This document shows, piece by piece, positions 3,985 through 64,000 of a stretch of DNA of 64,000 bases. The stretch covers positions 14,694,001 through 14,758,000 of the forward strand of contig CM114271.1 in NCBI GenBank assembly GCA_050084515.1. Direction: 5' to 3'. A program made the position numbers and the translations under genes. Numbering within the stretch: position 1 is the stretch's first letter; every line of letters begins with the position of its first letter. Source of the DNA: Blasia pusilla (lineage: Eukaryota). The notes under the pieces were generated by a model. It saw only the letters and a list, made by a program, of their open reading frames with translations. It had not been told where the DNA came from and searched no databases.

Positions 3985-4296
3985 CATTGAAGATTGAGTT
4001 ACAATCAAGCTCATGAGACAGCTGAACTGCTACATTTGGCACTCACACGAAGTAGGGAAGCTGAATCTTGGTTAGTCAATTAAGCGCGATTATCTTAACT
4101 AAGATCAGTTAATCACAATTAGTCTAACTCGAGACAATGATTAAGGGTAGGATTAGGATTTCTTGTACATACCCTATATAATTGAGAAGAGGACCAACCT
4201 CCATTCATTCTCTCATTGCAAATTTAGTTCTCCATGGTGTTTTGTGTGTGTGAGAGCCGTTTTCCACGAGTTATGCTTGTTTAGTAGTTTTCCACA
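3985..4296 (+). repeat. 3' LTR of Copia-1
   Basis: Direct repeat of 23-335, preceded by a purine tract and followed by the TSD. Confidence 0.93.
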
Positions 4297-4301
4297 GAGG
4301 C

Positions 4302-7300
4302 GCCCAAGTGAGAGTTTGCCTGAGGCCTACACCTGCTAACACCGGATAATGAATGTCACTAAGGAGGTGACAGAGGCTCAGGCTATCCCCTCATGATACA
4401 CGATGTTGGACCAGACCTTACGGACACATGTGCGAGAGGGGGTGCTTCTTATGAACACGTCCCCTACATTGAGAGATGTTTGTAGGACCGCCGAGAACAT
4501 TGAGGGCAACATGACGGAGGAGACCGCAGCCACCATGCGTTATGGGCAAGAGCAATCACGATTTCTTGCACCACCAGTGTAGCAACGTGGATTCCGATAT
4601 AGGTTTGTGGTACCACGAGCTTAGGCAGGTTACCGAGAGGTCGTGCCACGGAGACCTGCACCTTCATATGCGGCTCAGCAGTAGCTGCCTATGATTATTT
4701 GTTGGTCATGTGGTGGAGCCCATTATCAGCGCGATTGCACTTGTCAGGATCATAATCGTTTGCCTTAGCATGGAGGAGGAGATGGTGCTACACCAAGAGC
4801 TTATCAGTGTGACTATTGTCAAAGGTACGATCACACACGCACTAGGTGTTTCAGCTTGCACCCTAAGTAATATTTGGATCGAGCACCAAAAAGGGCACCA
4901 TTGCAAGTTGCCGGTCTGGGTGGGTGTAGAGGTCGTACACCAGGTGGTCTCGTTGGGGGACGAGGAGTTGGATTCGCCCGAGAGGATGGTGGAGTTGCCG
5001 GTGGAGGATGAAGAATCCCATCACCTCGACGCGTCAAGAGAGACATCGGGCATGAGGCTGGGATGGCAGCTCAGATACAAGAGCTACAGTAGTAGATTGC
5101 CGCTGTGGCATTGAGGTTACCCGATGCGAGATCCGTGGCATCGACATCTTATGGAGCCTCCAGAGATATGGAGGATCGTGGTTGGATGTGTGCGGTTTCT
5201 TAGACGGAGGCCGCCACAGTTGTTACGCGTGGAGCAACCGTAGAGTTGGATCCAGAGCAAGGGGAAGCCAGGAAACAGACCAAGCTTCCTAAGTCCTTCA
5301 TGCTGTCCGATGCAATCAAGATCCCATCGATGGGTCCTATTCAGAGTTCTCATAGAGTTGGTGATGTTGTTGGTGTGCAGGCATGAAGGGCGATGGGAGA
5401 AACGAATGCAATGATTCCTATTTTTTATGCTCAGAAGGAGCATGTGTCAAGCACGTTGTTGGGGGCGGCCACTATTGTGTTCCGCACTCCTTTATTTTTT
5501 ACTTCCGATGTTGTGACGTTGGGAGGCATGCTCGCCGAGGTTTTTTGGGTGGCCGCAACGCTATATGAGCGTGGAGTTGGAGTTCTTGCATCACGTTTAG
5601 AGGTGATTGTAGAGGAGGTGATGGACCTGCCCTTGGAGCTGATGTTCATGCCATCCACGTCAGATTCATGGCAGGCTGCGGCTGCTAGGATGGCGGAGAA
5701 GCCTGCTAGACCCATGATAGAGCGTGCCATGGCTTCTCTTGGTGTTGTTTTTCTAGATAACCGGGGAGAGGTCTTCCAGTTGGTGAGTCCAAGAGGTAGA
5801 GCTTTTAGTCGGCAACGCATCTTGTTGGATTCGAGAGCGCAACCTCTGATGTTGGGGAAAGCGACATTCAGAGGTTTGGGCCTGACGAGGGCCGATGTAA
5901 AACATTGTCCATTCTAGATATAGACATCCTTAGGTGGAGCAAGTACCACACAGTTTATCACCCAACATGAGGTCGTGGTGAAGATTTTCCTGAGACATCC
6001 TACAAATGAGTCCATGGTGCGAGCCAAGGCGACAATGATTGATGTAGAGTCCTACGACATCTTGGTTGTTGGAGCAGTGTTGTACCCAATGGAGTTTTCC
6101 TTGGATTATTGGGAGGAGTCAGCCTTCTACAGACCAAGATGGCAGTCAGATGATGGATGCCTTAGCTAATTACCCGTTTGATTCACAAGTGCAGTGATCA
6201 GCGCCAGCTTGGAGAGATGGCGACCTTAGCACCATTTAACAGTGCCACCACTTGGCCTAGTGATTTGATTGAGGGACATGTCCATGCAGTGGATACTCTC
6301 GTTCCTGACATTTCTATGGAGAGGAGTGTCATGGTTGCCGTACCTGTTTGTGGTGGAGAGGTGCCGCTTTGGGGTTCGACTGAGGAGCTTCGACGCTTAT
6401 CCACTCAACATGTGAAAATCGCATGGAGGGAGACGTTTGCACCATAGTGTGATGGGTCAGAGAAACTCGAGATAGCCATGAGTGCTACTATGATGCCTTT
6501 AAACAATGCCCGATTGTGTGGTGCATCCATAAGGAGGGTATTCGTGTGTTGGATCTCTTTGGAGGGATCAACATTGGCTTAGCTGCTATTTTGCAGGCTA
6601 GAGTCCGCATGCAGTAGTACTTGAACGTGGAGGTTGATGATGTTGCAAGGCGCGCTTCACTTCACCATGTGGTGCAGTTACGCCTTCATTTTCCCGACTT
6701 GTTATCTGGATCCGCCATCAAGGGTTACCGGAGTTCCCTACCAAGGGACATTTCATTGTTGGAGGCGGAGGACTTGGAGCGGATAGGGACCATAGACTTG
6801 GTCATTTTTGGTTGGCCGTGTCAGGGCCAATCGAGTGTTGGATGAGGTAGTTGGTTAGCTGACTCTTGGTCCATGTTGTTTTGGGAGATGATACGGATTT
6901 TGTGGCACTTGCAAGAGCATCAGTCCCGTTCTCCAACATACATTCTGGAGAATGTGCCAATTTTGGGCGATTCGAGGTCCCGCGTGGTGACGAGTGCCCA
7001 ACTCGTGCGTGCATGGATCGGCTCAGTAGTGTTTTTTGGATGCGGCGAATGTTAGTTCTAGAGCACACCGCCTGCATCTTTCATGGACCAACTTGGTACC
7101 ATACGAGGTGTTGTGGAGGGCATATGCACGAGTGGAGCATCGCTCCTAGTTGCTGGTGGATTCCACATAAGATCCGGGATGTCAATCACACGCTGTGAGG
7201 CACGATGATCGACCGCCATTGACTGTGGTCAACAGGATTGGCATGCCATGGGCAGCCTTTCCCATATTTGTGAGTTTTCTTGCTTCCCATGGATTGAATG

Positions 7301-7630
7301 AGACCAGACCTGGCTTGGCTTGGATCTTGACTAGGTACACAGGTTGGTGGAGCCCAACGCTGATGAGCGAGCGAGCGGCAATGGGATTCCCCATAGGAGT
7401 GACGGTAGTACCGTCACTTTTAGAGGCATGACGACATCATGTCTTGGGTTAGGCATTGGACCTAAACTGCTTGACATGGATTTTCAGCTTAGGAGTAGTT
7501 GAGCCACAACATGGTAGCCACAACATCGAGCGTGGTTTTGGGCACTACATGTGGAGATCAGAGGTTGCAGTTGGATGCAGGGCAAGGACAAGTGTTACTG
7601 TCGAAGATGGTGTTGCACCATAGCAACCAC
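4302..7630 (+). mobile_element. Ty3/gypsy fragment carrying a DNA methyltransferase (copy 1): gag-protease-DNMT
   Basis: Two CCHC knuckles (CWSCGGAHYQRDC at ~4700, CDYCQRYDHTRTRC at ~4810); retropepsin-like ILLDSRAQ at ~5820 and YDILV at ~6055; then a C5-MTase domain. Linker and MTase are homologous to the RT/IN-bearing copy at 57-62 kb. Interrupted in gag by Copia-1 and truncated before RT. Confidence 0.85.
6534..7500 (+). pseudogene. DNMT3-like C5 cytosine methyltransferase domain (retrotransposon-borne, disrupted)
   Basis: Motif I IRVLDLFGGI; motif II YLNVEVD; motif IV DLVIFGWPCQG; LFWEM; motif VI YILENV; motif VIII RAHRLHLSWTNL; ERAAMGFP; motif X RHHVLG. Spread over several frames with stops. 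Confidence 0.9.
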
Positions 7631-9065
7631 CTACACATTAGAAAAATCAGAATCCCTCTCCTTACAACATAGTACAATCAGACATAATATGACCCCATTA
7701 ATACAATGACTTATCTTACCAAGTAGACCAGGTTGGTGATCATTTGGTGGAACCTGTGGGGCAAGTCCAAGATTTGGGGCAAAGAAATGTCCACCAAAGA
7801 AGCCAATGGGTTGGCCCCATCCAAGAGGAATAGAACCTGCATGCCATACTTCAATATGCATTAACAATATGCTTGTAAGGGCTGATGGAGCCCTCAAAAA
7901 ATGACCCCTTGTTCAAACTTCTAACTTCATGAAACAGTATGGGAGGTGTTTAGGATCCTTTTGAGTACTTGTCATGCCCGAAGGCCATTGTGTGGGCATC
8001 TGGAACCCTAGGTTCATCCCAAGAATCGGCCATTGTAGGACTCCGGGAAGATGGGAAAGTGGATTCTTCTCACTTTTTTTTTCTTCTTGCCTGGACTAGG
8101 ACGCTATCGCTAAACAATCTAAGTGAGTCATTTTAGTATTTGCAAGAAAGAAGTTATAAACAAATAAAGTACTATGCAATTATTTCAATGTTTGCAATTA
8201 AGAGACTTGTTACTTACACATTCGTCACACGCCTTGCCACAATTCTTCTTCTGCCTTTATGGAGACTTCCCCTTGGCTACTCGAATCTATTCTAAACGTT
8301 CAGGGGAAGATTGTTGAGGTGTTGCATCATAGTCTTTATCGGACTCATTATTACTACTGAACCCTTTCTCTTCATCATTTGATGAGTCCTCCGACATAGT
8401 TGTTTTCTATGCAACACTTCGAGTATTATATACCTTTGGAGTTGATTAACAAACACCCTCACTGGTTCTTGCTCTCTTTTGAAAAACAAGTTGGTTAAGA
8501 GGTGGAAGAACTCTCCTTCAAACCAAATTCATAGCCAATCCATCTAATGGTAGTAAGATTATAGTCACAAAGGATAAAAATTGAAACCATTATAAAGTAA
8601 GTCCACCAAAGAGCAAGTTCAAAGAGTACTTCTTACCGAAACTCCTCTCCAAGTTTCCTTGTCGCCTCTCTCACAAAAGCCACACGCTCCTCACGTAGTC
8701 GATGGTATTTACTGCAAGGACTCTCCTCTACAATGTGGGTCTTGTCATCACTCTCAGAGTCTCTGCCCACCTCCGATGGCATGATCATTTAAACGCTAAT
8801 GAAATTGGACCCGATGTCAAACTACAATCAAAGTCCAATTGTAAGTACTTCTCTAGGAATTTTTTTCTCAAAAAATAGATATGTCATCAAGTTGGGTAAA
8901 GTACCTGAAACAGATAGATCCAAAATCCAAAAAAAACATTTAGAAAACTTAATTTTCACAATTCCAAGGCATACTATTATCATTGAAAATCCTCCTCACT
9001 TAAAACCTTACAAGGTAAAGTTGTTGCCCTACTTGTATAGAATAACACCAACATTGATGATTTGA

Positions 9066-32612: not shown

Positions 32613-35600
32613 GCTTTAGTCCATAGATACATTTTAGAAGACGGCATACTTTACCCTTAGTTTGAAAACCGGGAGGTGGTTTCATGTAGATCTCCTCCTC
32701 TAAGTCTCCATTGAGGAAAGCCGTTTTTACATCAATGAGCTTGACTTCCCAACCATGATAGGCGGCCAATGCTTATGAAATTTTGATGGAGACAAACTTG
32801 GAAATTGGTGTGAATGTCTCCTTGAAGTCAAGTCCTTCAACTTGACTGAAGCCTTGCGCCACAAGTCTAGCTTTGTACTTGAGAACTTGATTATCTTGAC
32901 CTGTCTTAGTTTTATACACCCACTTACTTCCAATAACCTTCCTGTCTAGGGGCAGATCGGCCATTTTCCAAGTCTGATTTGACTCATGAGACTTGAGCTC
33001 TTCATTCATAGCTTTCTCCCATTCCTCCCAATCAACACTCTCTTGTGCCTCTTTTAAAGATGTAGGGTCAGATTCATGAATATCTGTACCAGAACATATG
33101 ACGACATTGAATTGAGAGCAGAAATCCATGAGTTGTTGTTGCTGACTTTGTGTGTTTGGATCAAGAATTCTTGATCAAATCCAAATCTCACACGCTTCTT
33201 GGTTGTCCTGTTGGACCTTCGAGCTGATTCTGGCTCCTCAACAGTATTGTCTCAGGAGTAGTAACCAGATTGGCAACTGACTCCTCAAACATAGAAGTTG
33301 GAACTTGATTTTCATTGAAAATGACATCCCTGCTCTTGATAATCTTCTTGGTGGTAAGGTTACACATTCGATATCCCTTGCAATCTGGCTGAAGGCCAAG
33401 ATGTATGCACTTCAAAGATCTAGGATCCAGTTTCTTTCTCTGCTCCTTAGGGATAAGAACAAAAGCTTCAACACCAAACACCCGAATCATAGACACATTA
33501 GGTTGTGTTCTTGACCATGCCTCTTCAGGGGTTTTGCCTGCAAGAGCTCTGGTAGGACTAAGATTACGCAGGATATTTGCATACCTGGTTGCCTCAAACC
33601 AATATCCTTTGCTTAACTTGGAGTCACCAAGCATGCAATTGGTCTTGGTGACCAACGTACGATTTAATCTCTCTGCAACTCTGTTCTGTTGAGGACTATC
33701 CCTTGCTGAAGATTGAAGTGTAATCCCTTTTTCAACAAGATACCTGTCAAACTCTTGGTTGAAGAATTCTCCACCTCCGTCAGATCTGAAGGTTTTGACT
33801 TTCTTCCCAGTTTGAGTTTCTGCCCAATCTGCAAATGCTTTGAACTTCTGTAGAACATCTCTCTTCAGTTACAGAGGAAACACAAAAGATTTCCTTGTAC
33901 AATCGTTGGCGAAAGAGACATAGTATAAGGCATCTCCAAGGGACTTCATCTCGAAAGGACCACATACGTCACTATGGATTAGGCCAAGCCTGGGCTCAAA
34001 CCTGGACTTCGTTGTTGCAGGAAAACTTCTCTTGCTGTGTTTTCCCTTAATGCAGAATTCACAGAAGAATTCAGAAGGAACAGTGAACTTTGTACTTGTG
34101 GTAACTTGTTGAAGTTGCCTCATACCTTCCGCACTTAGATGCCCCAACCTTCGATGCCAAAGTAGGAAAGTTGACTCAATTTGGGCAAGGTTTGCCTTGA
34201 CCTTCATGGTACAAGTTCCATCTAGATGGTAAAGAGATCCACATGGGGACAAGCGAGAATAAGCCACCACTTGACCTTTCTGGTTGAGGAAAGAATACAC
34301 CTCGTTTTCATCAAGTCTAACGTTGATGCCATCATTTTTCAGTTGCGTAGTAGCAATCAAATTGTGGAAATTCTCATGATATAAGACATATGTTAGTTTG
34401 ATAACATTGATGTGAGTCCCAACTTTCGTGTAGATGGTAGCACTCCCACTCATTAATATGCTACAGAGAACTCCATTGGCAATAGAGATAGTGAATGGAG
34501 TTATACTATGTATCTCATCAAGCATTCGTGCCTCTCCACACATGTGTCTGGACGAACCACCGTCAATAATCCATATATCCGATGCCTTTTGGATAGAAGA
34601 TATGGGCAGCATGTTGGATTCTAAAGAATCACTCTCATTTAGAGTCGTGATAGTATTGACTGATGGGTGTGCATGGCCTTTTCCCTTTAACTTTCGCTTC
34701 TTGATCTCTTCCTTCCTCTCTGCCTTAAACTTGATTATCTTAAAACAATCAAAAAAATTTATTTGCCCGGTCTTTTCACAAAATGTGCAGATGAGGTGAG
34801 ATAGAACCTTCTTCTTCTTCTTCACCTTCTCCTTCTCCTTCTCCTTACATCTGATGTGAAGTTGATTTGATCAGATTCAAACTCACATAGACGCTGGTTA
34901 GTGTTCTCCTCGCGTTGGATCACACCAATGGCATACTCCATGGTTAAAGTAGAAGATGCTCTCTCAGATATCATGTTTAATACAAAAGCATACTTCCTAC
35001 CAAGGGTCACACAAAGAGCACTTACTTTTTGATTTTCATCCATAAGTAAGCCTCGAGAAATAAGGGCATCAAGATAAATATTTACTAGAGCAATATGATC
35101 AGAGATGGGGGTCTCACCATTATGCCTAAGGTTTCCTAGCTTTTGCCAATTTCTAAGTAAGTTAGTACTGGAAGTTGTAGCATAAACTTTCTTCAAAGCC
35201 TCCCACATCTCATAAGCTTTATCATACGATCGAGACCTTTCTTTACATGGTTTCGATATGTTGGAAACCATGTATCTAATGGCCACATTGTTATATCTAT
35301 TCCAATCCTTCATTGTCATCTCAGATGGAGTCGGGATGTCTACGATCAGATTCAGTAGGCATTTTCCAGCCAATAGAATTTTGACGTCGTAAGAAAATGA
35401 TTGACCAGCAGAAATATATCCTTGTACAAAGTCAGAGCTAGCATCAACTAGACCATCCATGATTTCAGCTTGTACACAATCAACAAATCAGTTCCTATCT
35501 CTATTGTTAAATTAGAGCCCTACCATGATGTGACTCTTCTTACTATCTAAGAGATACTAAGAAGGATTCTACACAGTCACACCTTGCACTCACACTACAG

Positions 35601-43200: not shown

Positions 43201-46200
43201 ATATCTCATAAATCCACGAATCACCAATCTTGTCCACTTTGCTTGTCCATGTGACCCATTCCTGTTTCGTAAGAGCGTGATTGGTGCACCAATATTCAAA
43301 CACAAACGATGCGGAAGAAGTCCAAAAGGGAAGCATGTGTTCAAGAATTTAGTTGCGTAGATATGACTCATCCCCTCTTTTGGAATAGAGTCGATGTTGA
43401 GGTAAATATGCTCATGTGCACAATATATAATGAATTAGTAAGAAAAAGTAATATTAGTGCTAAAACTTCCCAAAAACATATATAGAGGTACCGAGAAGAG
43501 AAGTAAAAAGGATTACCTCTCCATGAAATCGAGTCATAACGTCTGTATTTATGTCGTCAACATCTTTATTTCTTAGATTCAAAATAGTCGTATCTCTTAA
43601 GAAATCAATGTCATGGAATCGGCTAGGAAAATTGCCATAGATCAAATCAATAAGATCAAATATTTTGTTACTATTTGTAACAATTTCAAATGGTAATTGT
43701 ATAAAGTCTTCTCCCATATGAGGGTGCAAAGATACACGACCCTCTCCCACTTCCAATAACCAATCAGCAAAAGTTTTTTGTTCATCACGCAAATGACCAT
43801 CCAACCTTTGAACTCGCATGTTTGTTTTCAACTTCATGACCTTTACATTATACCAAAGAGACAACCTCTTTATGGTGGCTTGGATGATTTGCGGCCCATC
43901 CCCATGACAAACAACACGTAACACTTGATGAAAATCACCACCAAATACCATAAGTTTTCCACCGAATGGTAAGTGCCGTAAATCATCTGAAACAACTCTC
44001 ATACTATCATGCAAAGTTTGATTCACAACCTCAAAGGCATGACGATGAGCCATAGGTGCCTCGTCCCATATAATGAGCATCGCCTCACGGATTAAGCGCG
44101 CCCCATCACAATGGATCGATAAACTACCAACAAAAAGGGATGAAAATTAGAAGTTGTAATAATTGGAGTAATAAAATTTGACATTGTATTAACACAATTG
44201 AAGCTAATTAAAACAACTTATGATACTTAGTTGCAAGTAGAGCTTTCATGAAGATTAATGGGGATCTTGAAGCGCAAATGAGCAATACGTTATCCGTCTA
44301 ACAATAGAGCAGCTATACCAGCTGATCATCAACCAAAGCTATACCTCTTGCACTCCTTACACTTGCAAGGAGAAGATTATATATATGTAAAAAAATCCAG
44401 TTCCACCTGGACCATCGTTGAAAAAACCTTTTGGAGATGGGGGAGCATTCGCGCATATTTGATCAAGCTCATCATGTATAGCATCCCAGATAATGCATTG
44501 TCCTTCGTTTAGACATGCTTCTCCCAATTGCATTTGCTCAAATAATTCTTTTGTATCATATGATAGCTCTTGTTCCTCCAAATATGAGTGTGAACAAAGG
44601 CTTTCGAAATTAGCTTGGGGCATATGTGGAAAGTCAGATAGTCTCTTTCCTTGATCTTGTAAATAATAATCAACTTCCAATAATGTTGTATTCATAATAA
44701 CATCATCAACGCGAAGCTTAGGAATTCCTATTTTTGTAATGGAAGAGTTCCAAAAAAGATCCAAATCATGGTTAATATGTTGGATTCTCAATATAAGATA
44801 CAATTAGGAAGAAATTTTTTTATGTAAGGAGTGGTAGTATTGAATTCTCACCTGACGTCATTCATATAAAAGATCTTTTACCGATAGAACTAAGAACCGG
44901 CTCCATAGTGTAGCAGGTGTAGCAGGTGTTGTAAGCTAGAATAATTGCAAATAGACGTCAAAGTGAAGAACCCGCACGGATGATAGAAGCTTCTCCGAAG
45001 CAAGAAAACAACTCCGTATCATCCTCAAGAAGTTCCGATTGGATAGGAGCCTCCTTGAATGTTGGACACAATCCTATGAACAGTTCTCAAGCATTGGTAT
45101 GTAGTTGCTCCTCGAACGTGATGGAGGAGTAATCTCAACCAATGACGTTCTCCTTCACCTATGAAGAAGTGAAATAAATTAGCTCATCTATTATCGAATG
45201 TACAAAATTATGTGCTTACCGCCACTGATATATAAAAGAAAATTAAATATATACAAAACACTTTTTAGAATTTACCTGGATAAGTAAGGTATAAGAGGCC
45301 GATGGGATGACCCATTTTTTTATCCTACGAATCCACTTCTTGTTACTCCAATGATAATATGAAGGAAAATCTATATATAGATATTATCGAGTGATGGAGT
45401 CATATGTATTGGTTGCAAACCATTGGGTCAGAGTTGTCTCTCTATTTTGTTGCAAAACATCTTGAGGAAAAATGATGTAAACTATTTTTTGTTCAGGAAG
45501 ATGAATTGCTAATCGCACAATACATGGAAGTTTAGCATGTAGACTAAACTTGAACAAACGCCAACATGTCTCTGAAGAAGATATATATCTGGAGAACAGA
45601 ATATGAATCTTCAGAGTAATTAATATACCCTTAAAGTAAGTATAAATAACATGGTGGATGAGAAATAGAATATAATTCATGAGAGTAATTAATTAGCAAA
45701 AACATACTTTGCATCAAGGTATGATGTAGTCTCGTCAACAATGTCATTTGCATTGGATGTATCCATATTCTTTGACAATTTAAAGGACACGGCACCATAC
45801 ACCTTATAAACATATTTGTTTAAGTATTTAACGGCAAACACACTACTTGTGATTTCCAAGTTAATGTGACAATAAAAAATGGTGGATAGCATTGGATTGT
45901 AGGGCACAATCCAACGAGTGTCCAATGAATGTTCAGACTTGATTATTGCCCTCCCATTCTCCAAACTATAAAAACATAGTAAGAAATCATAAATACATCA
46001 ACGTCATATGCCCTATAGTAATAAATATAAGCAAAGATAAAAGAATCCTTATCTGCGAAAAATTGGATAACCGTCTTCCGTCTCTACAGTGTTGGCCGCA
46101 AAAGCTTTAAGATAGTCTTTTGTATATTTTTTTGTTTCCTTATCCATATATGGAGCATTAGGATTTAATGGTCCACATGGCCCATGAACCATGCGATTAG

Positions 46201-52200: not shown

Positions 52201-54310
52201 AGAGTGACATTAGAAACTCAAGATTTGAAGTAGAAGATGATGAACCCTTGAAGGTCCATCCTCTTTATATAATCACAAGGGATCCACAAAAGTACGAAAT
52301 ATGACTAATCTTATCTTGTGCCATATGGCTTCCTCCCAAGGCTTACCCAATCACATTTTGACATAAGTAGATTATCTCTTATATCTTCCAAAATATCCTG
52401 TTTTACTCACTTCATATCTTCCAAACTACTCCAACTACCCTAGCCACCAACCAAGACTACCTTTATTTTCTTTCATTAAAGCATCAATCCCACTACTTTA
52501 CTTTTATAATCTGATCTTTTATTCATTACCTTTTTTTCTAAAGTTGGGCCCGCACAAATGAGTCACCCTAAAGAGGTATAAACATGATAATTTCATTTTC
52601 CTAGGCTAATTTACTTAATACCAATAAAAATCTCTCTAACACTTAATGAGAGAGGATTTTACACATTGGGTGATTTTACTGTACGACATTCACCCCCTCC
52701 AAATATGCACATGCTCCGGTATATGCCAAAAATATATATACTTCTTGTTATTTCACTCACACTTTATTTTTGCTGTGTTTCTAAACACATTGAGTTTAAA
52801 TCAAAAAATCTCTCTCGTCTACGGAAATCTTGACCTTTTTTCCTACAATGGGCAGCTTGAGGATTATTCCATCTAGTTCACGTAGTTTGTAAGTGGCATT
52901 GTCAAAAGCAAAGACTACAAGGTATGGACCAAACCAACGACGTGCAAACTTCTTAATTGTACTATGCTGGTTTTTGAGGCTGTTGTCATGCACCAAGATC
53001 CAATCTCCTTCTCTTATAGGCTCCTTCCGAATTCGATGAGTTTTGTCAAAGCGCTACATATTTTTCAACCTTGCTTTCTTCATTTTGACTAATGCTTCTA
53101 CAATATCTTCTTCACGCCAATATAGCTCGTGTATTCGAACTGTGAGGAGCTCTTCCCTATCGAGCCCGTTCTCCCACGGCAAACCCATCCAAGTGGGAAT
53201 ATCTCCTTTGCTGGCATTCTTGGCTTTTGACATGTCATCAACTCTGTAGGCATGAACCCTATAACGGTGTTGTGAATGGTTTTGATTGCCCATAAAGCAA
53301 ATAGAAGCAATCTAGGCCAATCAGTATAACAATCTCCACACGCCTGTAACAATGCTTGAATAATTGGCGGATTTCCCGTTTCACTCTTGCCATTTGCCTC
53401 TGGATTCATGGAGGTTGTTAATCTCGATTGGACTCCATACCTCTTGAAGAACTCTCGTGCTTCCTCCGCATTCAGCTCACCTCTATCTCCATGGATTCTC
53501 CCGACACTCCCATATCAAGCAAAAATATCCTCTAGAATAAAACGACATATAGGCTATGTTGTTTTAAGTCCTCTCTTCTACAAAGTTGGAAAACTCTTCT
53601 CGTTCTAGGACCAAGTATCGCTTTCCCCAAAGACCTAGTGGCATAACAACTAGATCTATAACCCAATGATGATGAATAGACAAAGGATACGTAGGTTTAA
53701 GTCCATCTCTCATCCTCATTTTTTATTGAAACTGACATTCAACACATGACCCAACATATCTCTCAACATCCTTGTACATGCCTTTCCACAAATACCTCTC
53801 TTTTATCTTGGTGAAAGTTGCCCAAGTACTTCTATGTCCTACCCATAAAGAATTGTGGAATTCTTTGAGCACTTGCATTTTTATCCCAGTGTCATCCACC
53901 ACCCGTAAGGGCATTCCATCTCTCCTCTTTGGCCTTTTCCAAAGATATCCATTTTGTAGTAGATAGCCATATGCCTTATGCCGAATCTCCTTAAAGAACT
54001 TATCTATCCACCCTCCGTCCCTTTGCAGAGTGCTTCAATAGCGCCCTATTTCTTTTAACCTGCCTTCATACAAATTCTCTTTGAAGGCTAGAACATCCTC
54101 TATGCCACCCTGTTCTTGAGATGACACTTGCCATACATATGCATCATCCTCATCTATCTCAATTGCCTCCATATCTTCTTCTTGAGTAAATCTAGCTCTA
54201 GAGAACATATCAACTACTAAGTTCTCTTTTCCAGCTATATGCCTCAATTGTGGATTTAAGGACCTAATATAGGCTATCCAAGGTAACATGGCTATATCTG
54301 GACTTATAAA
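49270..54310 (-). mobile_element. Two tandem Ty3/gypsy fragments sharing one LTR
   Basis: RNase H end and integrase (HIAGKENLVVDMFSR, H..H..C..C, PEANGKSE, RWFGPY) at 52796-54289; PPT at ~52690-52700; LTR at 51516-52688 (TGTCA...CGACA); then gag (RFDGKNMTKY, CIWCDSVEHQRREC) and protease (ALVDHG) at 49270-51392. Confidence 0.8.
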
Positions 54311-55076
54311 ATTTACTGTGATTCCTAATGCGCTCCCTAGTTATGAAAGTTTAAGACGATGCTGGTAGGCTATGCAAATTAATTGCCATGTGTAGGTTTA
54401 GGAGTTACTATTTTATGTTCGGTCGGTTTAGGTTGAGGTCGTTCGCAAGTCCTCTGTAGTTTCTTACGCGGATTTTTGTACTACACAAAAATTGACCACA
54501 ATAGGTCGCTACCGCTGAAGGTATTGGGAGAGTACCTTCATTGTGGACTCTTCTATGGGGGCTATGAACCTCGGCACTTTGGTCTACATGTCTTATTAGT
54601 ATCATAACTCGCCCCGAGGCCAACAATGCCAGCTAGTTACATGTGAGTGCGCAAGTAGGGTTAAAGTCTAGAGTACTCGATCTGAGTACTTCGAGATAGA
54701 GAAGGCCAAGTGTAAAGCCATTCGTACATACATATTTCATCTTACACCGTGTATCCCCAAGCAACTTTCATTCTCAAGTAAGTTTTACATGTCTGTAGAT
54801 TACTATGCTACTCATGATCTACGGAGTTGAGTCTTCCTAGCTATCAAGTGAGAGCATAATCTAGATGTTCACTACAACACCTTTTCCTTTTTTCCCTTTT
54901 TGAGGCAACTTCTTAGTTGCGTCGAGATCTGAGCTAGGTGTAGTAGGTACAACAACAAGGCCGATTGAGCATCTCTCTGTCGATGGTGAACGACACTCTT
55001 ATGGGTTGGGTTGTGGTGTCTTCTGAAGTTTCTTTGCAGATTGTCCCTCAATAGCACATTCCTTTTCATTGCCAGG

Positions 55077-55555
55077 TGTCATGACCATACGGATTATGTC
55101 ATAGAGTATAGGGTGCTAGTAGAGGCCATACCTTATGTAGGGCTGTAGTGTCTAGGTAGAGATGCGGTTTCATACATAGGGTTGGGGGTTACTCCGTTGA
55201 GGGTGAATTTTCCAGTAGGGCCCGCTCTTAGGTTGGAGGATATACTGTGGAGTGTACTCAAAGAATTGTTAGTTCTTTGAGTTGAGCCTGTTGCGTTAGG
55301 AGTTAGCCTTGGTAGTGAGTAGAGCTCTTGGTTATGGTGGTTCCCGCAAGCTTCAATCTGGATTTTCCCATCATGAAGTGGGTTTGGCTCAATTGTATGT
55401 GATTCTATATGTGTTTTATGACAGTAGGTCTTTCACTCAAAGAACTAAAGTTGTGGTACACTTGTGTTTGTGGATGCTCTCGTCTATGTTATGTATGTAT
55501 GTGAGTATGATATATCAGCGATGTATGTTGTATGATGATGTGGATTCGCACGCCA
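55077..55555 (+). mobile_element. Miniature B-PBS-A derivative of the DNMT/PHD gypsy family
   Basis: B at 55077-55435, ctcaaagaacta at 55436-55447, A at 55452-55555; flanks cagg / tagg (4-bp TSD with one C>T). Confidence 0.8.
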
Positions 55556-57084: not shown

Positions 57085-57664
57085 TGTCGTGTGAATCCAC
57101 ATCATCATACAACATACATCGCTCATATACCATACTCACATACATACATAACATAGACGAGAGCATCCACAAACACAAGTGTACCACAATTGAAATCCGT
57201 GAAAGACCTACTGTCATAAAATACATATAGAATCACATACAATCGAGCCAAACCCACTCCACGATGGGAGAATCTAGGTCAAAGCTTGCGGGAACCACCA
57301 TAGCCAAGAGCTCTACTCACTACCAAGGCTAACTCCCAACGCAACAGGCTCAACTCAAAGAACTAATTGTTCTTTGAGTGCACTCCACACTATATCGTCC
57401 AACCTAAGAGCGGGCCCTATTGGAAAAATCACCCTCAACTGAGTAACCCCCAACCCTATGTATGAAACCGCATCTCTACCTAGACATTGCGGCCCTACAT
57501 AAGGTATGGCCTCTACTAGCACACTATACTCTACGACATAATCCGTATGGTCATGACAACTGTCGTGCAAATCCACATCGTCATACAACATACATCGCTG
57601 ATATACCATACTCACATACATACATAACATAGACGAGAGCATCCACAAACACAAGTGTACTACA
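57085..57664 (-). repeat. Composite 3' terminus A(57561-57664)-gt-B(57191-57558)-at-A(57085-57188)
   Basis: Two 104-bp A copies flank one 368-bp B copy; every segment begins TG and ends CA. Confidence 0.92.
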
Positions 57665-57839
57665 ACTTGCTCCCCTAACTGGCGGTTAGGTCCCTCTAAC
57701 TCCCAAGTAGCCCTATACATCTACTACATGCTATACACCTTCTTGGGTGCACGAATCAAAAGGCCGGGTGCTAGGTTGCCCCATCGTTAGTTGCATATCT
57801 GTAATCCATATCAAGCAAAGATCAATTCATCAACCTCTC

Positions 57840-58133
57840 CTAAGTACATCGAGGACAAACCCACCTTCCAGTAGGAACAACATCCACATGTGGAGTCAAA
57901 CACATCATGTGCCAACCCCTAGAACACCGATCACACACCAACATACGGGCTTCGTTACCAGCAGACCCACACAACATGCACCTCAAGCTAGCACGTATCA
58001 TGGCTATGCTTGGGTCAACAGTACCATCCACATTTGGAAGATGACATGGCGCACAATTACGCACATGGTCCTTCCAAACAACTCCATCACGACCCTCCAA
58101 CATGAGAACTCCAGAAGCTAACACCTCGCGCAC
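57840..58133 (-). CDS. Integrase C-terminus ending in a PHD finger
   Basis: CMLC-x11-CDRC-x4-H-x2-C...WVCPRC, a complete C4-H-C3 pattern directly after the integrase C-terminal region. Confidence 0.9.
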   Translation of the reverse strand: MREVLASGVLMLEGRDGVVWKDHVRNCAPCHLPNVDGTVDPSIAMIRASLRCMLCGSAGNEARMLVCDRCSRGWHMMCLTPHVDVVPTGRWVCPRCT

Positions 58134-61100
58134 TCATAAAATAGTGCGGCCTGCCGTCACATCCAACGTTGTCGGTGCAATCTGCTGCAAATAGACATAG
58201 TCCCCCACATGGAACCTACAAATTGATGGTTGATAACTTCCACTCCGAATGGTTGCATACCGCAACGTATCCCTGTGTTAAGCAATGGCAAGATTCTCAA
58301 AGGCTATTGGCATAACTCTCCGAAAGAGCTCTGCCCGCTGAGAACACACTCTCATCCACATCTCTTGGTCATTAAGGTTCACCACCTCACTAGACTCCCA
58401 ACGAATTGCTGTTGGCAAGTCTGGATATCGGCCGTATAATAGAAAATAAGGTGAGAAGGAAGCCAAGGATGCTTGGCGACTGAACCTATACCCCATGGCT
58501 AAACATGGCAACTGAATATCCCAGTCTCCAAGATGCCCCTTTTGTAGGCCATACTTGCGCAATGCCCTTTTCACCGTCTGAACCACATGCTCAGCCAAAC
58601 CATCCGCCTCTGGATGATCTCAAGATGTGGTCCGATGATCAATCAACGCCTTGTCACACAAGACTTGAAACTCACCCTGAAACTCTGTACCTTGGTCGGT
58701 CAACACTTCAGCTGGTGCACCAAAATTACTAAGCACTCTATCAAGAAATGAATATGCCGTTCCCTCACTTGCCTTATCAGGTAATGCCACCAACTCAATC
58801 CACTTGGAGAAGTGCTCCACCATCACCAACACATATTGATGATGTCGTATAGTCAACGGTAACGGTCCCGCAAAGTCCATACTCGAACGGTAACCCAACC
58901 CCATAATAGGCAAGGGGTGTAACTGTGATGTAGGGGCATTGAATGATGCCCTCACCCGGTCACAAACCATACAACATGACACCAACTGCTGCATCTGAGT
59001 ATGCATGCCACGCCACCAATATTGACCAAGGAGTAAGCCATACGTACGCTTTACCCCAAAATGTCCCAACTCCTCATGGGCATGTCGCACAATGCGCTCT
59101 CTCTGAGCCAAATGCAGCACTACTCGTACTCTACCATCCTCCCACACACAGAGAATCTGTGTTCCCTCCAATCGATACCTCTTAGCACGATGAAGAACAT
59201 GGTCTCGCTCCTTGGCTCTCACTATGCCTGGCACCCTACTGGTCCGTAGGAACTCCAACACCAATGCATCATCATGAATATCACGCTGATCCGTACCACC
59301 ATCTCCATCCTTAGGATGTGAAGGCTGGCCATCTACCCTCTGACTAGAGTAAGATGTCATGTGGTCCTCCATACTAGAGTCCACCCCTAACCAACATAAA
59401 AAGGCGAATGCATGCCAACCTGGCACCATCTCCTCATCAACCTCGTCATGCCATCTAGCCCCAGTTGCATCCTCTTGGCTAGTACATGGGTTCCTACTCA
59501 ACCCATCAACATCAAGGTTGGCAACTCCAGGTCTATGTACCACATGGAAGTCATACTCCTGTAAGATAAGAGCCCACCGTGCAAGCTTCCTTGTGAGCTT
59601 GTCAGACTCCATCAACCACTTGAGCGGCTGGTGATTAGTAACAAGGTAAACTGTGTGCCAAACAAGTAACACCTAAAGTGTGCCACAACCCACACTAGTG
59701 CCAAGCACTCTCCCTCATATGAATTGTAGCGCGACTCCGCTGCATTATTCGAACGACTTGCATAGGCCACCACAAACTCCATGTGCTCATCATCATGTTG
59801 TGTCAACACCGCTCCAAGTCCCAACCTACTCCAATCAGTATGTAATTGAAATGGGCGCCCTCTGATAGGTCTCCTCAAGATAGGCGCCGCCACCAACTAG
59901 GCCTTGAGCTCCATAAAAGCTCTCTCCTGATCATCTCCCCAGTGCCACTCCTGATCTGATTTCAACAATTGGTTCAAAGGCTTTGCGATAGCACTAAATC
60001 CCTTCACATACCTCCGATAGTAGTTCGCCAATCCCATGAATGCCCGAACTCTACTCACATCTATCGGACGAGGAATAAGTGCAATAGCCTCCACCTTTGC
60101 TTGATGAACTCCCAAACCACCTGGATAGATCACATGACCCAAATACTCAACATCCTCATGGAAGAACTTACACTTTCCTGGATGCAAACGTAGACCATGA
60201 GCTTTCAACCGCTCAAACACCATCTGCAAATGTATCTGATGCTCCTCCACCGTGTTACTGAACACCAACATATCATCAATGTAACACCGAACAAAATCCA
60301 ACCCTGCTAGGATCCTGTCCATCACTCTCTGAAACTCGGCAGATGCATTCTTCAACCCCAAAGGGTAAGAATTTCCACTAGTACAAACAATCCTTGCCAT
60401 GAGAGTTGACACCCCAAAATGTTGTCTTGGCCTTGTCACTCTCTCGAATCGGCAACTGATGATATCCTGCCCGAAGATCCAAAGTACTGAAAATCTTTGC
60501 CTGTGCGACCACATCAAAGATCTCCTCAAGTGTAGGCATGGATTACCTATCAACCTTGGTGTGCCGATTGATAGGACGGTAATCTCCACACATCCGCCTA
60601 TCCGTGTAGTTGCCATGCATTTCCTTTTTAGCAGGCATGAGAGTGGTTGATGCATACTCTCCATGCGACAACTCCACTAATCCAGCCTCCAAAAGGTCCA
60701 ACGTCCTACTCTGAATCAGATCCCTCTCCATATCACTATATCGGTAGGGACGACAGAAGATTGGTGTATCACTAGCCAAATCAATCCGTATACCGGGTCC
60801 AACCAAAGCACCCAAGTCCTTCATGCTAAAGGCAAAACAACTCCTATAAGCACGTAGGAACTGTGTCAAGCGTTGTTTCTCACCTCTCATAAGCTTGGGC
60901 CCAAGTAATGGCTCCCAAGTCTCCTCCACTGGCACACTAGAGAGAGAGGACGATGCCATTTGCTGCTACGCAACCCCCTCACAAGATAGTACACCCTTAG
61001 CTACACCATCATCTGAGCAAATAACTCCTCCAGCAGCATGAGCAACCAACTCCACATGCCCAGCCATTACATCCCATTTACTCCAAGGATGCAAAATACT

Positions 61101-61209
61101 ACTCTCCTCGCCCCCAGCCGATACCTCTACCATCTCGGTAGCCATCGAGCTCATCACAAGGGGTGGAAGACCCACAAACATAGTCCGAAGTCCACGCTGC
61201 TCGGCCATA

Positions 61210-62160
61210 CCAAGACTCAAAATCCAAGTCAAACAATTCAGGTCCATGGCGTGATCCAACACATGACGTCGTGAAGCCTTAGAAATGGAAGCAACCGCTG
61301 TCACACCAGTAGCAAATCCCATCGCACGCTCTCTCTCATGAGCATTAGGCTCCACTAACTGTCGCACATGAGAATCCCATACAAGCCCATGAACACCTTC
61401 CCTGTAGGCATATGACGAGGAAAAACTCACAAATGTGGGTAGTGCCATCCTAGGCTGGCCCACACGGTTCACCACTTCCATGGGTGACCGATCAATAACC
61501 CTCACCACTTGAGAAAGTCGCCCAGTATCCAAGATACTATCCATTGTAAGGCAAGGATCCCACTGCACTGCATCATATGCTCGATGTAGAACCTCCCTAG
61601 GCAACAAGTTTGTCCACCACAAGCGTGGACGATGTGCACGCGAGCCAACTCGCGCTGCATCCAACAACACTGTTGGTCCAATCCAAGACCGCACCTCATG
61701 AACACTCGCCATCATCCGGGTCCGAGTGTCACCCAACAATGGAACATTCTCCAGAATGTAAGCTGGAGCACATGCCTGATGAACCTGAAGATGTCGTAAC
61801 ACCCGTAACATCTCCCAAAACAATCAAGACCTAGGATCGTGTAATCCCTCAGCACGACCAACACGTGTATGACCCTAACATGGCCATCCAACAATCACCA
61901 AATCCACAGGACCAACCCTCTCAAGGTCCTTTGCCCCCAACAATGCAATGTGTGAAGTCAAAGCACCCTGGTACCCACGAATAGCTGATGGCGGCAACAA
62001 CTCACGATATCTCCGCATCAACTGACCGATATGTCGAGATGAGACTCTCTAGGCCGTCTCATCTCGCTCCACATACATGTATCTCCGCACAGGAATACCG
62101 GTCTGCAACACTGCAGCCAAACCAGTGCTAATCCCACAAAAGAGATCTAACACACAAATG
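61210..62160 (-). pseudogene. DNMT3-like C5 cytosine methyltransferase domain (single frame, three point stops)
   Basis: ICVLDLFCGISTG, YMYVERD, GPVDLVIVGWPC*G, LFWEMLR, YILENV, LLDAARVGSRAHRPRLWWTNL, ERERAMGF, RRHVLDHAM. Confidence 0.93.
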
Positions 62161-62989
62161 CCCTTCGGCGGATACTGCCATACAATGGGTTTAGTATCCA
62201 AAGGGAATACCCCAACAAGACCAGAAATAGGAGTCCACCATGGGGCCTCATCTTCCTTGCGAGGTATAACAACCTCACACCAAGCCTCCTGCACTAGGCG
62301 ATCAGCCTCTTGCCATAGTGCACCGCCTAAACTCCAAAGTGGCACATCCAACAATGAGGATGCCACTACTGCAAAACTAGGGACCTCCTCTACCTCCGGG
62401 GGTTGGTATTTTGACAGGAGAGAGTAAGAGAGGAGAGGAAGAGAGGAAGAGAGGAGAGTCTCTCTTAAAAAAAAAAGGCCAAATCCGCCTCCTCTCTTCA
62501 AAACTTTTTGACATATTTGAAATTTTTGTTTGCTTTAAAATTCAGGAAATCTTTAGAAGAGAGTATTTAGTGGTCCACATTTGGCCCTAAGAAAACCTCC
62601 TCTTTCTTGGGGGCGAGAAAAAAGGAGACATCATAAGACCACCCTAAACATTTTTCCATCACTCTCCATGTGAGCCTAAGTTTCTTAACATTCCCTGTCT
62701 CGGTCAACAAAAAGCAGTGCCCTTGGTATTTTTGTTGGAGGACCACCCGGATGGGTACCTCTCTTTTTGCAGGTATTTTTTCCTGCATTATGGCCTCCCC
62801 TAAATTTCCCCATAACCAACTTTCTGTCGGTTATGAATGGTGTCTGCTCAAGATCAACTTTCTGAAATGTGAACAAATCAGATCCTAAGGCTGAGAAACC
62901 GAGAAGCTGCACCCCTCCCAACCCGTAAGAAAGCTCACCATAAGAAAGGAAAAGATTTTTAGAAGTGATTTTCTTCCATCCTGCACCCA

Positions 62990-64000
62990 CGACGATCTAA
63001 CGGGTTGGGAATCCGAAATGGCAATCCGACAGGTAGTAGGAATCCTGCATATCTTAGACAAGAAAAGAAGCCTACAACTGGTTGGACGAATGAAGGGGAA
63101 CGAGCCAAAAGTCAAGAAGCCCGCCACAATGCGTCAAAAGTTGGTCTCACCGGGATCACTCAAGCAGTCAACCTGTCGGAATCCGACAAGTTGCCTGGAA
63201 ATGGTTAAAAAGTTGAAGTGGGAAAAAAACAAAAAGTCGGAATCATACGGGTTGCAGAATTGTAATTCTGAGTATCTAAAAGAACACAATCCACAAGTCC
63301 AAAAACAGATTCCAGCAAACTTTTACAAACACCATTATGGGTTGAAAAAATCTCGTCCTTTATTACCTCCGAAGGAACCTCGGAAATGTACATTTCACCT
63401 AGTCTATGATTTCTTCAGCCTCGTCATCTACAAATTTACTCCTAACTCTCCTCGATGACAGTACCAAAGGAATGTTTTGGGATTCAAGTGGCTCCTCTGG
63501 CCGATTGTAGACGGGGATAGAAAATGTTGGCGAATTCGAGAGCCTTGGCCCCCCCCTAGGTACACCATAACGGTCCCATGTAACCTATCTCGAGTCCCAC
63601 CGCCTTCCTAGGCAGTATACCTTGTACGCTCTGCAATGTGACACCCATCCAGTATCAATATCTGCTCCGTCCCCGGTAATACCACTATGGCAACCGCACA
63701 GGTAGAAGGAATCCAACACGTCTGAGAGAAGAAAAGAAGCCTACGCCTGCCTTTACGAGTTGAGGGGAAGGTGCCAAGGAAGAAGCCCGCTAGATCGCCT
63801 CTTAAGTTGGACCAACAGGAAAGGTCCGATCAGGCAACTGTCGAATCGAATCAGGACGAGTTGCCTGGAGGTGGTAAAAAGGGTGCAGTGGTCAAAAAGC
63901 GAAAAGTTGCAAGGAGGAGAAATCCGACGGGTTGCAGTGGTCATAAAGTGAAAGTTGCAAGCAGGAGAAATCCGACGGGTTGCAAAGTAGAAGTCCGTGG
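62990..64000. repeat. Degenerate direct repeats of an unclassified element
   Basis: 63020-63260 resembles 63690-63940; recurring atccgacgggttgca-like motif. Confidence 0.6.

Follow-up and report, generated by a model that had tools for sequence, protein, structure and literature searches.

A decayed Ty3/gypsy retrotransposon copy from Blasia pusilla with a DNMT3-like methyltransferase and a PHD-tailed integrase

Background

Can a single retrotransposon carry both an enzyme of the class that writes DNA methylation and a finger of the class that reads histones, and if so, how are the two arranged and expressed? The question is raised by a stretch of 64,000 nucleotides (nt) of Blasia pusilla DNA (GenBank assembly GCA_050084515.1, contig CM114271.1, positions 14,694,001 to 14,758,000 of the forward strand), the whole of which is referred to below as the window. 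An earlier inspection of the letters alone (here the sequence-only reading) had placed at 57085-62420 a dead Ty3/gypsy element encoding a DNMT3-like DNA methyltransferase (MTase) upstream of the reverse transcriptase (RT) and an integrase (IN) that terminates in a PHD finger. Our analysis confirms this core observation, namely MTase, RT, RNase H (RH), IN and PHD finger in one dead element, and finds the coordinates essentially correct, with the homology to relatives beginning at ~62397.

We interpret the locus as a dead, 5'-truncated copy of a Ty3/gypsy family with the following organization: long terminal repeat (LTR), open reading frame (ORF) 1 (gag with a CCHC knuckle, protease (PR) and DNMT3-like domain), a UAG codon, ORF2 (RT, RH and IN-PHD), a short segment A, the LTR and segment A again. 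Together with the mode of expression and targeting proposed below, we assign this interpretation a probability of roughly 0.78.

Anatomy of the main copy

The main copy occupies the minus strand from 62397 to 57085 as a 5'-truncated and decayed Ty3/gypsy element, with the order DNMT3-like MTase, RT, RNase H, integrase, PHD finger, 3' LTR. Its coding remains are spread over three minus-strand frames, A, B and C; the read-through translation of frame A (P0002) is interrupted by in-frame stops at codons 162, 220, 237 and 523. All features listed here are on the minus strand.

62534 to 60543, minus strand: frame A, MTase and start of RT
60676 to 59612, minus strand: frame B, with Pfam matches RVT_1 (5e-20) and RT_RNaseH_2 (1.3e-25)
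59672 to 57840, minus strand: frame C, end of RNase H, with Pfam matches Integrase_H2C2 (2.2e-14), rve (4.4e-12) and PHD (7e-11)
60969..62397, minus strand: ORF1 remnant (post-protease linker, DNMT3-like domain, C-terminal tail) with three copy-specific stops (codons 162, 220 and 237 of P0002)
61200..62165, minus strand: DNMT3-type catalytic domain of a C5 cytosine MTase, with a linear order of motifs I to X (PF00145 8.8e-8; DNMT3A in PDB 1e-12)
60966..60968, minus strand: conserved in-frame UAG ending ORF1 (gag-PR-DNMT), with ORF2 continuing in the same frame (homologous stop in 41/42 sequences)
60128..60965, minus strand: reverse transcriptase, shifted in frame near 60356 in this copy specifically (RVT_1 5e-20; frame change within 60345-60364; RNA reads)
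59553..59896, minus strand: RNase H, carrying a stop in frame at 59897-59899 and a change of frame within 59612-59672 (RT_RNaseH_2 1.3e-25, RT_RNaseH 1e-22)
58134..59105, minus strand: integrase, comprising H2C2 zinc domain, DDE core and C-terminal region and interrupted by three stops specific to this copy (Integrase_H2C2 2.2e-14, rve 4.4e-12; read-through translation P0042)
57840..57980, minus strand: C4HC3 PHD finger at the integrase end and natural ORF2 stop at 57840-57842 (PF00628 7e-11)
57561..57668, minus strand: repeat A1, last internal segment ahead of the 3' LTR (95% identical to 57085-57189; same layout in the loci of relatives)
57191..57559, minus strand: 3' LTR, ~369 nt, TG...CA (termini like those of the LTR pair of locus L048; further copies at 29287-29664 and 55073-55436)
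57085..57189, minus strand: repeat A2, which adjoins the 3' LTR on its outer side and forms the outer half of a split direct repeat (A-LTR-A in the window, L003, L030, L048 and L053)

The domain order characteristic of Ty3/gypsy is satisfied by RT, RH and IN in the window and by a PR upstream of them in the relatives, the main copy itself having no PR; thus, the main copy is a member of the Ty3/gypsy LTR retrotransposon superfamily. The RT-RH-IN order in Pfam and the TG...CA LTR bear out the name given to the element by the sequence-only reading. Repeat A2 marks the true 3' end of the element.

The methyltransferase is DNMT3-like

The MTase domain, METHYLTRANSFERASE, is DNMT3-like according to the PDB, profile and fold comparisons. 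The separate ORF pieces of frame A gave no MTase match in Pfam; the same frame with X at the stops matched DNA_methylase (PF00145) with an E-value of 8.8e-8. PF00628, the other family for which the sequence-only reading had proposed a search of the repaired translation, was matched in frame C at 7e-11. A comparison of the window MTase with PDB aligned both lobes of DNMT3A (1e-12). Motifs I (FxGxG), IV (PC), VI (ENV), VIII, IX and X follow one another in linear order, with a stop at the codon after PC.

Profile A1, which combines 12 MTases of the family, was searched against PDB and matched DNMT3A with an E-value of 5e-24 over both lobes and DNMT3B/3C with ~1e-22. The scores for the plant DRM enzymes ranged from 6e-14 to 1e-8 and were confined to the motif I-IV half of DRM, as expected of a non-permuted query. 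Bacterial M.HaeIII and M.HhaI followed at ~1e-7 (2e-7) and DNMT2 at 2e-4, while DNMT1 was absent among the PDB matches listed for this profile. The AlphaFold model of P0312, an intact relative that is 77% identical to the window MTase domain, has a mean predicted local distance difference test score of 90.7, and Foldseek reported as its top PDB matches exclusively catalytic domains of DNMT3A/B/C (E ~3e-19, target template modelling (TM) score 0.83-0.84). A look-up of P0312 in the ESM Atlas returned only generic DNA_methylase clusters. The linear motifs, the DNMT3A match at 5e-24 and the fold match at a TM score of 0.83 agree with the proposal that the enzyme is of the DNMT3 type and not permuted as in DRM. 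Pfam detected no PWWP or ADD domain in the ORF1 remnant or in the Marchantia ORF1, only DNA_methylase, and we therefore speak of a DNMT3-like domain and not of a canonical DNMT3 enzyme. In alignments of 12 and 36 members the columns of the catalytic motifs are invariant or nearly so.

The integrase ends in a PHD finger

Frame C ends, one residue ahead of its last stop, with a PHD finger in which all eight C4HC3 zinc ligands are present with the spacing C-x2-C-x11-C-x2-C-x4-H-x2-C-x14-C-x2-C (P0042), and PHD fingers in PDB were matched at up to 1.4e-16. In the tail Pfam gives PHD families only and no chromodomain, which confirms (PF00628, 7e-11) that the PHD finger sits in the position of the chromodomain at the integrase C-terminus. 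PF00628 was also found in relatives, in 117 of 120 among the matches listed. The nearest relatives of known structure are the fingers of KMT2C, KMT2D, CHD4, DPF2/3, ATXR5, KDM5A/B PHD1, WSTF, BAZ2A/B, PHF21A, UHRF1 and AIRE. Most of these PHD fingers read the unmodified N-terminus of histone H3 (H3K4me0 or H3R2me0).

The IN-PHD tail of the window shares 42-49% identity with pol proteins from Haematococcus, Tetrabaena, Pleodorina and Volvox; the named hosts of the clade of PHD-tailed integrases include, besides these four green algae, Hariotina and Tetradesmus, and also the charophyte Coleochaete.

A conserved stop codon separates the methyltransferase from the reverse transcriptase

The TAG at 60966-60968 separates the tail of the MTase from the first residues of RT, and both sides share one frame. 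In a comparison of 42 sequences (the window and 41 loci whose RT start is >60% identical) the homologous codon is TAG in 30, TAA in 11 and TAC in one, and it is followed by CAA CCC ATG in 38 of the 42. Several ORF1 gene models end exactly at this codon (Marchantia P0003, P0004 and P0009, Calypogeia P0314 and P0006 from a metagenome), and in P0007 and P0029, whose models extend across it, a predicted intron excises the stop. In more diverged lineages the surrounding peptide is unrelated and yet the stop is kept together with the six bases after it: TAG CAA CCA in L032 and in a second fragment of the family in the window, TAG CAG TTA in L046 and L047, and TAG CAA TCA in L072. All five are exact matches to UAG_CAR_YYA, the consensus given for type I (tobamovirus) readthrough in the accessible text of PMC3542737. 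The main window copy has CAG CAA after its stop, which is two bases off this consensus, and in the still more remote relatives P0054, P0032 and P0300 the MTase-RT junction contains no stop.

The stop at the junction is, as judged from these alignments, a conserved feature of the family and not a product of decay; it follows that ORF1 is gag-PR-DNMT and ORF2 is RT-RH-IN-PHD. Leaky termination at the UAG is a likely means of ORF2 expression. The sequence-only reading had taken a stop and a frameshift at the junction for damage to a single polyprotein. The stop is indeed present, but it is conserved in 41 of the 42 sequences; the nearest frameshift lies ~600 nt downstream, inside RT near 60356; and the supposed single-polyprotein design gives way to a division by a leaky-type stop into gag-PR-DNMT and RT-RH-IN-PHD. 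A candidate hairpin downstream of the ORF1 stop, obtained with RNAalifold from 10 sequences, was dropped (its covariation term, +0.44, lends it no support, and it overlaps conserved codons).

The family and its two architectures

The second fragment of the window comprises the 5' part of the coding region only:

4295..7640, plus strand: gag, PR and DNMT only, diverged and decayed (tblastn; gag/PR matched by Marchantia ORF1)

It starts directly after the 3' LTR of a Copia element (3986-4296) and ends ~20 nt past its own TAG CAA CCA (TAG at 7621-7623). Its MTase is 48-52% identical to that of the main copy (tblastn). We rejected the idea that a single element had been split into these two fragments, given their opposite strands, the presence of an MTase in both and this level of identity.

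Annotated proteins that are 61-77% identical to the window MTase were found in Marchantia polymorpha (many gene models), Calypogeia fissa, Riccia sorocarpa and four Sphagnum species. The Marchantia models of the ORF1 type (e.g. P0003, 1278 aa) contain gag, a CCHC knuckle, a protease motif and the MTase. A scan of metagenome contigs yielded 80 loci, of which 42 are at least 6 kb long. In 29 of these long loci the MTase is followed by RT on the same strand, mostly with gag/PR upstream, and in 16 of the 29 the order continues via RNase H and integrase to the PHD finger. Eight of the 42 exhibit a second architecture, with the order RT, RNase H, MTase, integrase, PHD. The sequence-only reading had proposed that intact copies be inspected for a single ORF, and the answer depends on the lineage: the intact locus L046 has two (ORF1 of 1369 aa with protease and MTase, ORF2 of 1047 aa with RT, RNase H, integrase and PHD), while a single ORF of 2358 aa in P0054 encodes PR, DNMT, RT, RH, IN and PHD. 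A HMMER search of a protein library reported 201 representative clusters at E-values of 1e-30 or better, many of them within proteins of 1000-3400 aa.

Could a host DNMT3 gene or pseudogene simply have come to lie beside an unrelated gypsy insertion at this locus? The window is a graveyard of nested and truncated transposons and the truncation of the main copy falls only a little upstream of the MTase, which would suit such an accident. However, the same order, frame and junction recur in the second fragment of the window and in the 29 long loci, and the same arrangement is found in gene models of four bryophyte genera and in intact ORFs; furthermore, the MTase region yielded neither introns nor a PWWP or ADD domain, and RNA reads cross the region of the MTase-RT junction at even depth. 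The recurrent MTase-RT loci and the conserved junction stop refute a chance juxtaposition, to which we give practically no credence. For the same family, the MTase is found neither in isolated copies at variable positions nor as a separate insertion, two outcomes against which the sequence-only reading had staked its proposal: it has a fixed place in many copies and is in frame with its neighbours.

In the phylogenetic tree of 64 MTase rows, which did not include a host DNMT3 outgroup, all 33 sampled MTases of the RT-MTase-IN-PHD order fall on one side of a branch with a support of 99 in the Shimodaira-Hasegawa-like approximate likelihood ratio test (SH-aLRT), and the window MTase nests among the ORF1 rows of the liverwort type. 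This pattern indicates that the MTase has been inherited with the element, with one change of its position on the tree. The sister architecture, RT-RH-DNMT-IN-PHD, is exemplified by loci L058-L070 and by proteins such as P0034, P0037 and P0064, and its hosts include the chlorophytes Hariotina and Tetradesmus.

We also determined the order of domains in 217 collected homologues of at least 900 aa with at least one of the four domains (MTase, RT, IN, PHD). The orders are RT-MTase-IN-PHD in 106, MTase-IN-PHD in 27, MTase-RT-IN-PHD in five and MTase-RT-IN in six; two further types are MTase only (29, ORF1-like) and RT-IN-PHD (23, ORF2-like). The MTase and the PHD finger thus occur together in 138 of the 217, a share that is not a population estimate because the homologues had been gathered with the window's own domains as queries. 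The pairing, which the sequence-only reading did not know to have been described in one element, is therefore not rare; a description of it was likewise not found in the literature that we searched.

This census bears on the suggestion that the MTase and the PHD finger form a coupled reader-writer module, a mobile analogue of the ADD plus MTase pairing of DNMT3, in which the PHD finger guides or gates the MTase. The frequent co-occurrence is in keeping with such a module, as is the resemblance of the finger to the class of H3K4me0 readers, this being the same signal that ADD reads; moreover, in the sister architecture (106 proteins and 8 loci) the MTase adjoins IN-PHD and the two might share one polypeptide. 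In the lineage of the window, however, the domains are in different ORFs, with the conserved stop and RT, RNase H and integrase (~1,300 residues) between them, and processing by the protease would split them. The PHD finger occupies the site at which chromoviruses carry the chromodomain that targets integration, it is a common accessory of green-algal transposons that have no MTase, and 23 RT-IN-PHD proteins lack the MTase, though many of these may be products of ORF2 only. Because of the separation of MTase and PHD into different ORFs, the analogy with ADD plus MTase is a loose one for the window lineage, for which the coupling is weak; it is more plausible for the sister architecture. On the whole we consider a coupled module unlikely.

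Selection on the methyltransferase

Pairwise ratios of nonsynonymous to synonymous substitution (dN/dS) were calculated by the method of Nei and Gojobori (NG86) for 32 MTase, 36 RT and 12 integrase segments. Deep pairs (dS 0.5-2) gave values of 0.25-0.26 for the MTase, 0.20 for the integrase and 0.31-0.34 for RT; for shallow pairs (dS 0.1-0.25), which are mostly decaying copies, they are 0.54-0.56, 0.52-0.53 and 0.36-0.37, respectively. Among single pairs, the MTases of the window and L008 give 0.25 and those of L046 and L047 give 0.155. The MTase of the family is under purifying selection and constrained like the integrase. Neutral evolution of the MTase, which would have spoken against a role for it, is at odds with a ratio of ~0.25 in deep pairs.

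These values bear most directly on the view that the MTase is a passenger, i.e. a captured fragment of a host DNMT3 with no role in the life cycle of the element, or a domain that acts on RNA or as a structural spacer. In favour of a passenger one may cite that the only tested Gypsy-Dnmt3 domain of a streptophyte, as reported in the accessible text of PMC5890265, produced no DNA methylation in yeast, that the Pfam scores of the MTase are weak (E ~1e-8), and that the close genomic copies seen are all decayed. A passenger would hardly be expected, however, to exhibit a deep dN/dS of 0.25 equal to that of the integrase, catalytic motifs that are nearly invariant over 12 and 36 aligned members, 201 representative clusters at 1e-30 or better with many of them in polyproteins, a position that is fixed in each architecture (all 33 DNMTs sampled from the second architecture lie to the same side of a branch with SH-aLRT 99) and a confident, DNMT3-like structure model. 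We regard the passenger hypothesis as very unlikely, more so than the coupled module.

The ends of the element

Segment A, of 105 nt, lies directly before (57561-57668) and directly after (57085-57189) the 3' LTR, and its two copies are 95% identical. The same A-LTR-A layout was found in every one of the five sequences in which a 3' LTR is followed by at least 110 nt (the window, L003, L030, L048 and L053), while the 5' LTRs of 16 loci are without a preceding A. A-LTR-A is a split direct repeat and is unusual for an element that uses an integrase; we take it to be of the kind known from PAT/DIRS-like elements. The LTRs of L048, which enclose the full set of domains, are 92% identical and those of L008 are 94% identical. 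The flanks of L048 exhibit no clear duplication, and no primer-binding site of the TGG type was seen beside its 5' LTR.

Two further LTR copies of the family in the window, at 29287-29664 and 55073-55555 (both on the plus strand), are 91-93% identical. The former runs into the leader that is seen after the 5' LTRs of L048, with no gag detected behind it; the latter consists of the LTR and 14 nt of leader joined straight to segment A, and looks like an internally deleted derivative.

Decay of the main copy and transcription of its relatives

The homology to relatives starts at ~62397, upstream of which there is a CT-rich simple repeat and unrelated repeated DNA, and RNA reads of related copies continue past 62397 into sequence unlike that of the window; thus, gag, protease and the 5' LTR are missing in the main copy. 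Two frame changes were identified, one in RT near 60356, where 83 of 95, 109 of 120 and 80 of 87 reads in three RNA runs lack one base, and the other in RNase H at 59612-59672. Besides the conserved junction stop, seven in-frame stops are specific to this copy. The stops, the two frame changes and the 5' truncation leave no doubt that the copy is dead, as had been stated before. Among the 40 best-supported differences between the window and the reads, 24 have T/A in the window against C/G in the reads and two the reverse; seven of the 24 are in CG context, compared to 12.6% of the remaining cytosines. The observed/expected ratio of CpG in the main copy is 0.56. The decay of the main copy is dominated by C-to-T changes, the pattern expected of methylated DNA, although the sample is small.

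The three RNA-seq runs, which bear the species label of the DNA run with the best match, cover 57187-62422 at a depth of ~50-200 and nearly zero outside it. First mates map to the plus strand ~10 to 100 times more often than to the minus strand, so that the RNA is in the sense orientation of the minus-strand element if the usual stranded (dUTP) library layout is assumed. Only 22-37 of ~4100-4400 reads per run are at least 99% alike to the main copy, and we conclude that the RNA comes from related copies and not from the main copy. Many RNA fragments end at 57398, inside the 3' LTR. From this DNA run, 159,352 contig pieces were aligned, which shows that the family is highly repeated in that genome. 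As a side observation, 58312 is joined to 59321 with 9 other letters in between by 15-30 reads in each of the three RNA runs, which indicates that a family member without ~1 kb of the integrase is transcribed.

A proposed mode of action

The organization described above suggests the following scheme. Most ribosomes would halt at the UAG and release Gag-PR-DNMT, so that the MTase would be made in Gag-like amounts and carried into the particle; a minority would read through UAG-CAR-YYA and append RT-RH-IN-PHD, and the protease would then separate the products. The MTase may methylate the new complementary DNA (cDNA) of the element or its fresh insertions, which would carry the mark on entering the genome and would cost the host little. 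The PHD finger of the integrase would tether the intasome to histone H3 tails, most likely those unmethylated at K4, and could thereby steer insertion off active promoters, as chromodomains do for chromoviruses. The activity of the MTase, the readthrough and the PHD targeting are all predicted from the sequences of the family.

Several points weigh against this interpretation. The yeast assay mentioned above, which concerned the domain of KnitGypsy-Dnmt3 and which its authors call inconclusive (PMC5890265, as far as its accessible text goes), detected no methylation. The specificity of a PHD finger is not predictable from sequence alone. Readthrough is suggested by the codon context, and the CAA CCC of 38 of the 42 close copies is one base off the readthrough consensus; moreover, the conserved AUG two codons past the stop would also permit reinitiation, and RNAalifold, applied to 10 sequences, found no supported conserved RNA structure downstream of the stop. 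The RNA reads stem from copies that differ by 1-10% from the main copy, and the call of the sense strand rests on the assumed dUTP layout. Finally, since the close genomic copies seen are all decayed, current mobility in those hosts is unproven.

A wider form of the proposal would have a Viridiplantae-wide gypsy clade combine a DNMT3-like writer with an H3-reading PHD finger; in its bryophyte branch the writer, fused to Gag-PR upstream of a leaky stop of tobamovirus type and so packaged in the manner of a capsid protein, would methylate the cDNA ahead of or during integration and so produce pre-silenced 'stealth' insertions. We offer this extension as a speculation that is rather doubtful, if somewhat less so than the coupled module.

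Comparison with known systems

The element belongs to the known Gypsy-DNMT3 kind. According to the accessible text of de Mendoza et al. 2018 (PMC5890265), a gypsy element of K. nitens encodes an intronless, non-permuted DNMT3 with Ka/Ks <0.2, and the Dnmt3-bearing gypsy of Klebsormidium that the sequence-only reading had referred to is thus on record there. The two share a gypsy-encoded DNMT3-like domain under purifying selection (Ka/Ks <0.2 in their case, 0.16-0.26 here), and the legend for KnitGypsy-Dnmt3 has repeats arranged as in a DIRS element, which fits the LTR ... A-LTR-A found here. The DNMT3 of K. nitens is described in that text as placed 'into the Pol polyprotein ORF', whereas the DNMT of the present family ends the gag-PR ORF before a leaky-type stop; and while KnitGypsy-Dnmt3 is from a charophyte, the closest named copies here are in liverworts and Sphagnum, the two being compared by description only. 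The word 'PHD' is absent from the main text of PMC5890265, although its figures and supplements may show a PHD finger, and there was no K. nitens sequence among the named protein matches to the window domains.

PHD fingers have been described in gypsy elements of Chlamydomonas, namely REM1 (Perez-Alegre 2005, as cited) and Gypsy-7a_cRei (PMC9940879), in which, as in the present family, a gypsy pol from the green lineage includes the finger as an accessory. Unlike here, their descriptions, as far as the accessible texts go, mention no methyltransferase, and the legend for Gypsy-7a_cRei lists PHD before INT. The chromoviruses are Ty3/gypsy elements with a chromodomain at the C-terminus of the integrase (Gao et al. 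2008, as cited in the accessible text of PMC6673714). They share with the present family a reader of histone tails on the integrase C-terminus and the same proposed tethering to a chromatin mark for safe insertion, but the reader here is a PHD finger and there is no chromodomain. The main text of the REXdb paper contains neither 'PHD' nor 'methyltransferase' and no lineage with either domain, so that the present family does not figure in its lineage scheme; the PHD-tailed integrases of a lycophyte gypsy lineage to which the sequence-only reading refers found no confirmation in that text.

With the DNMT3 enzymes of animals and plants the MTase shares catalytic sequence, motif order and fold; unlike them, it has no PWWP/ADD and is embedded in a retroelement polyprotein, and the gaps in its alignment with DNMT3A reveal a longer insert between motifs VIII and IX. 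The EpiLTRs of Cymbomonas and Euglena combine a DAM adenine MTase, a DNMT4-related cytosine MTase and a chromodomain (bioRxiv 10.64898/2026.05.21.726589, according to its accessible part); they likewise pair DNA methyltransferase and chromatin reader in a single LTR element, but the present family has a single, DNMT3-like MTase together with a PHD finger. As in the type I leaky stop of tobamoviruses, UAG is followed by CAA CCA, CAG TTA or CAA TCA (in four diverged loci and the second copy); unlike in those viruses, the stop is in a retrotransposon between DNMT and RT, and the largest subfamily has CAA CCC.

In the accessible text of later papers 'streptophytes (Gypsy-DNMT3)' are mentioned only in passing. 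In the literature searched, figures and supplements not being covered, we found no description of a bryophyte Gypsy-DNMT3, of a pairing of DNMT with PHD, or of a placement in ORF1 with a leaky stop. The features not found in print are thus the distribution on the land-plant side, the MTase that ends the gag-PR ORF before a leaky-type stop, and the regular pairing with a PHD-tailed integrase.

Other features of the window

The rest of the window, 1-54400, is a transposon graveyard in which no host gene was recognized:

~24-4296, 11085-15977 and 33188-35487: three Copia elements
16289-16720: CACTA-type transposase (Transposase_21), with DUF4218 at 10295-10930
19191-20114: ORF with DUF4371/zf-C17orf113
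43460-44146: Helitron-like PIF1 helicase
53576-54340, minus strand: another gypsy integrase

On the other side of the main copy, the truncation point adjoins the CT-rich simple repeat (~62410-62470), a repeated sequence occurs at 63018-63108 and 63687-63777 (77% alike), and the DNA run covers the sequence at 62398-64000 at very high depth, while the RNA from there has the opposite strand bias.

Implications

Gene models in Marchantia and Sphagnum splice over the conserved stop or fuse fragments (P0007, P0029, P0362), and one of them joins a piece of the MTase to a PHD finger. Copies of the transposon can thus be miscounted as host DNMT or PHD genes, and may inflate the counts of 'DNMT3 genes' in bryophyte genomes.

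Gypsy-DNMT3 has so far been in print for one charophyte alga, with an inconclusive test of activity. To this we add that the kind is abundant and transcribed in a genome on the land-plant side and has close relatives in Marchantia, other liverworts and Sphagnum. The family as a whole occurs widely among mosses, liverworts and green algae but has scarcely been covered in the literature. Three hypotheses are opened by its organization: production of the MTase in Gag-like amounts, control of pol by readthrough, and histone-guided insertion. If the wider form of the proposal is true, DNMT3 activity encoded by transposons may contribute to the methylomes of land plants, a possibility that is raised by the intact ORF1 gene models of Marchantia polymorpha, and the elements may even be a source or a sink of host DNMT3 genes. 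Marchantia is, in addition, amenable to genetics, and could serve as a host for asking why a transposon carries an enzyme of the very class that silences transposons.

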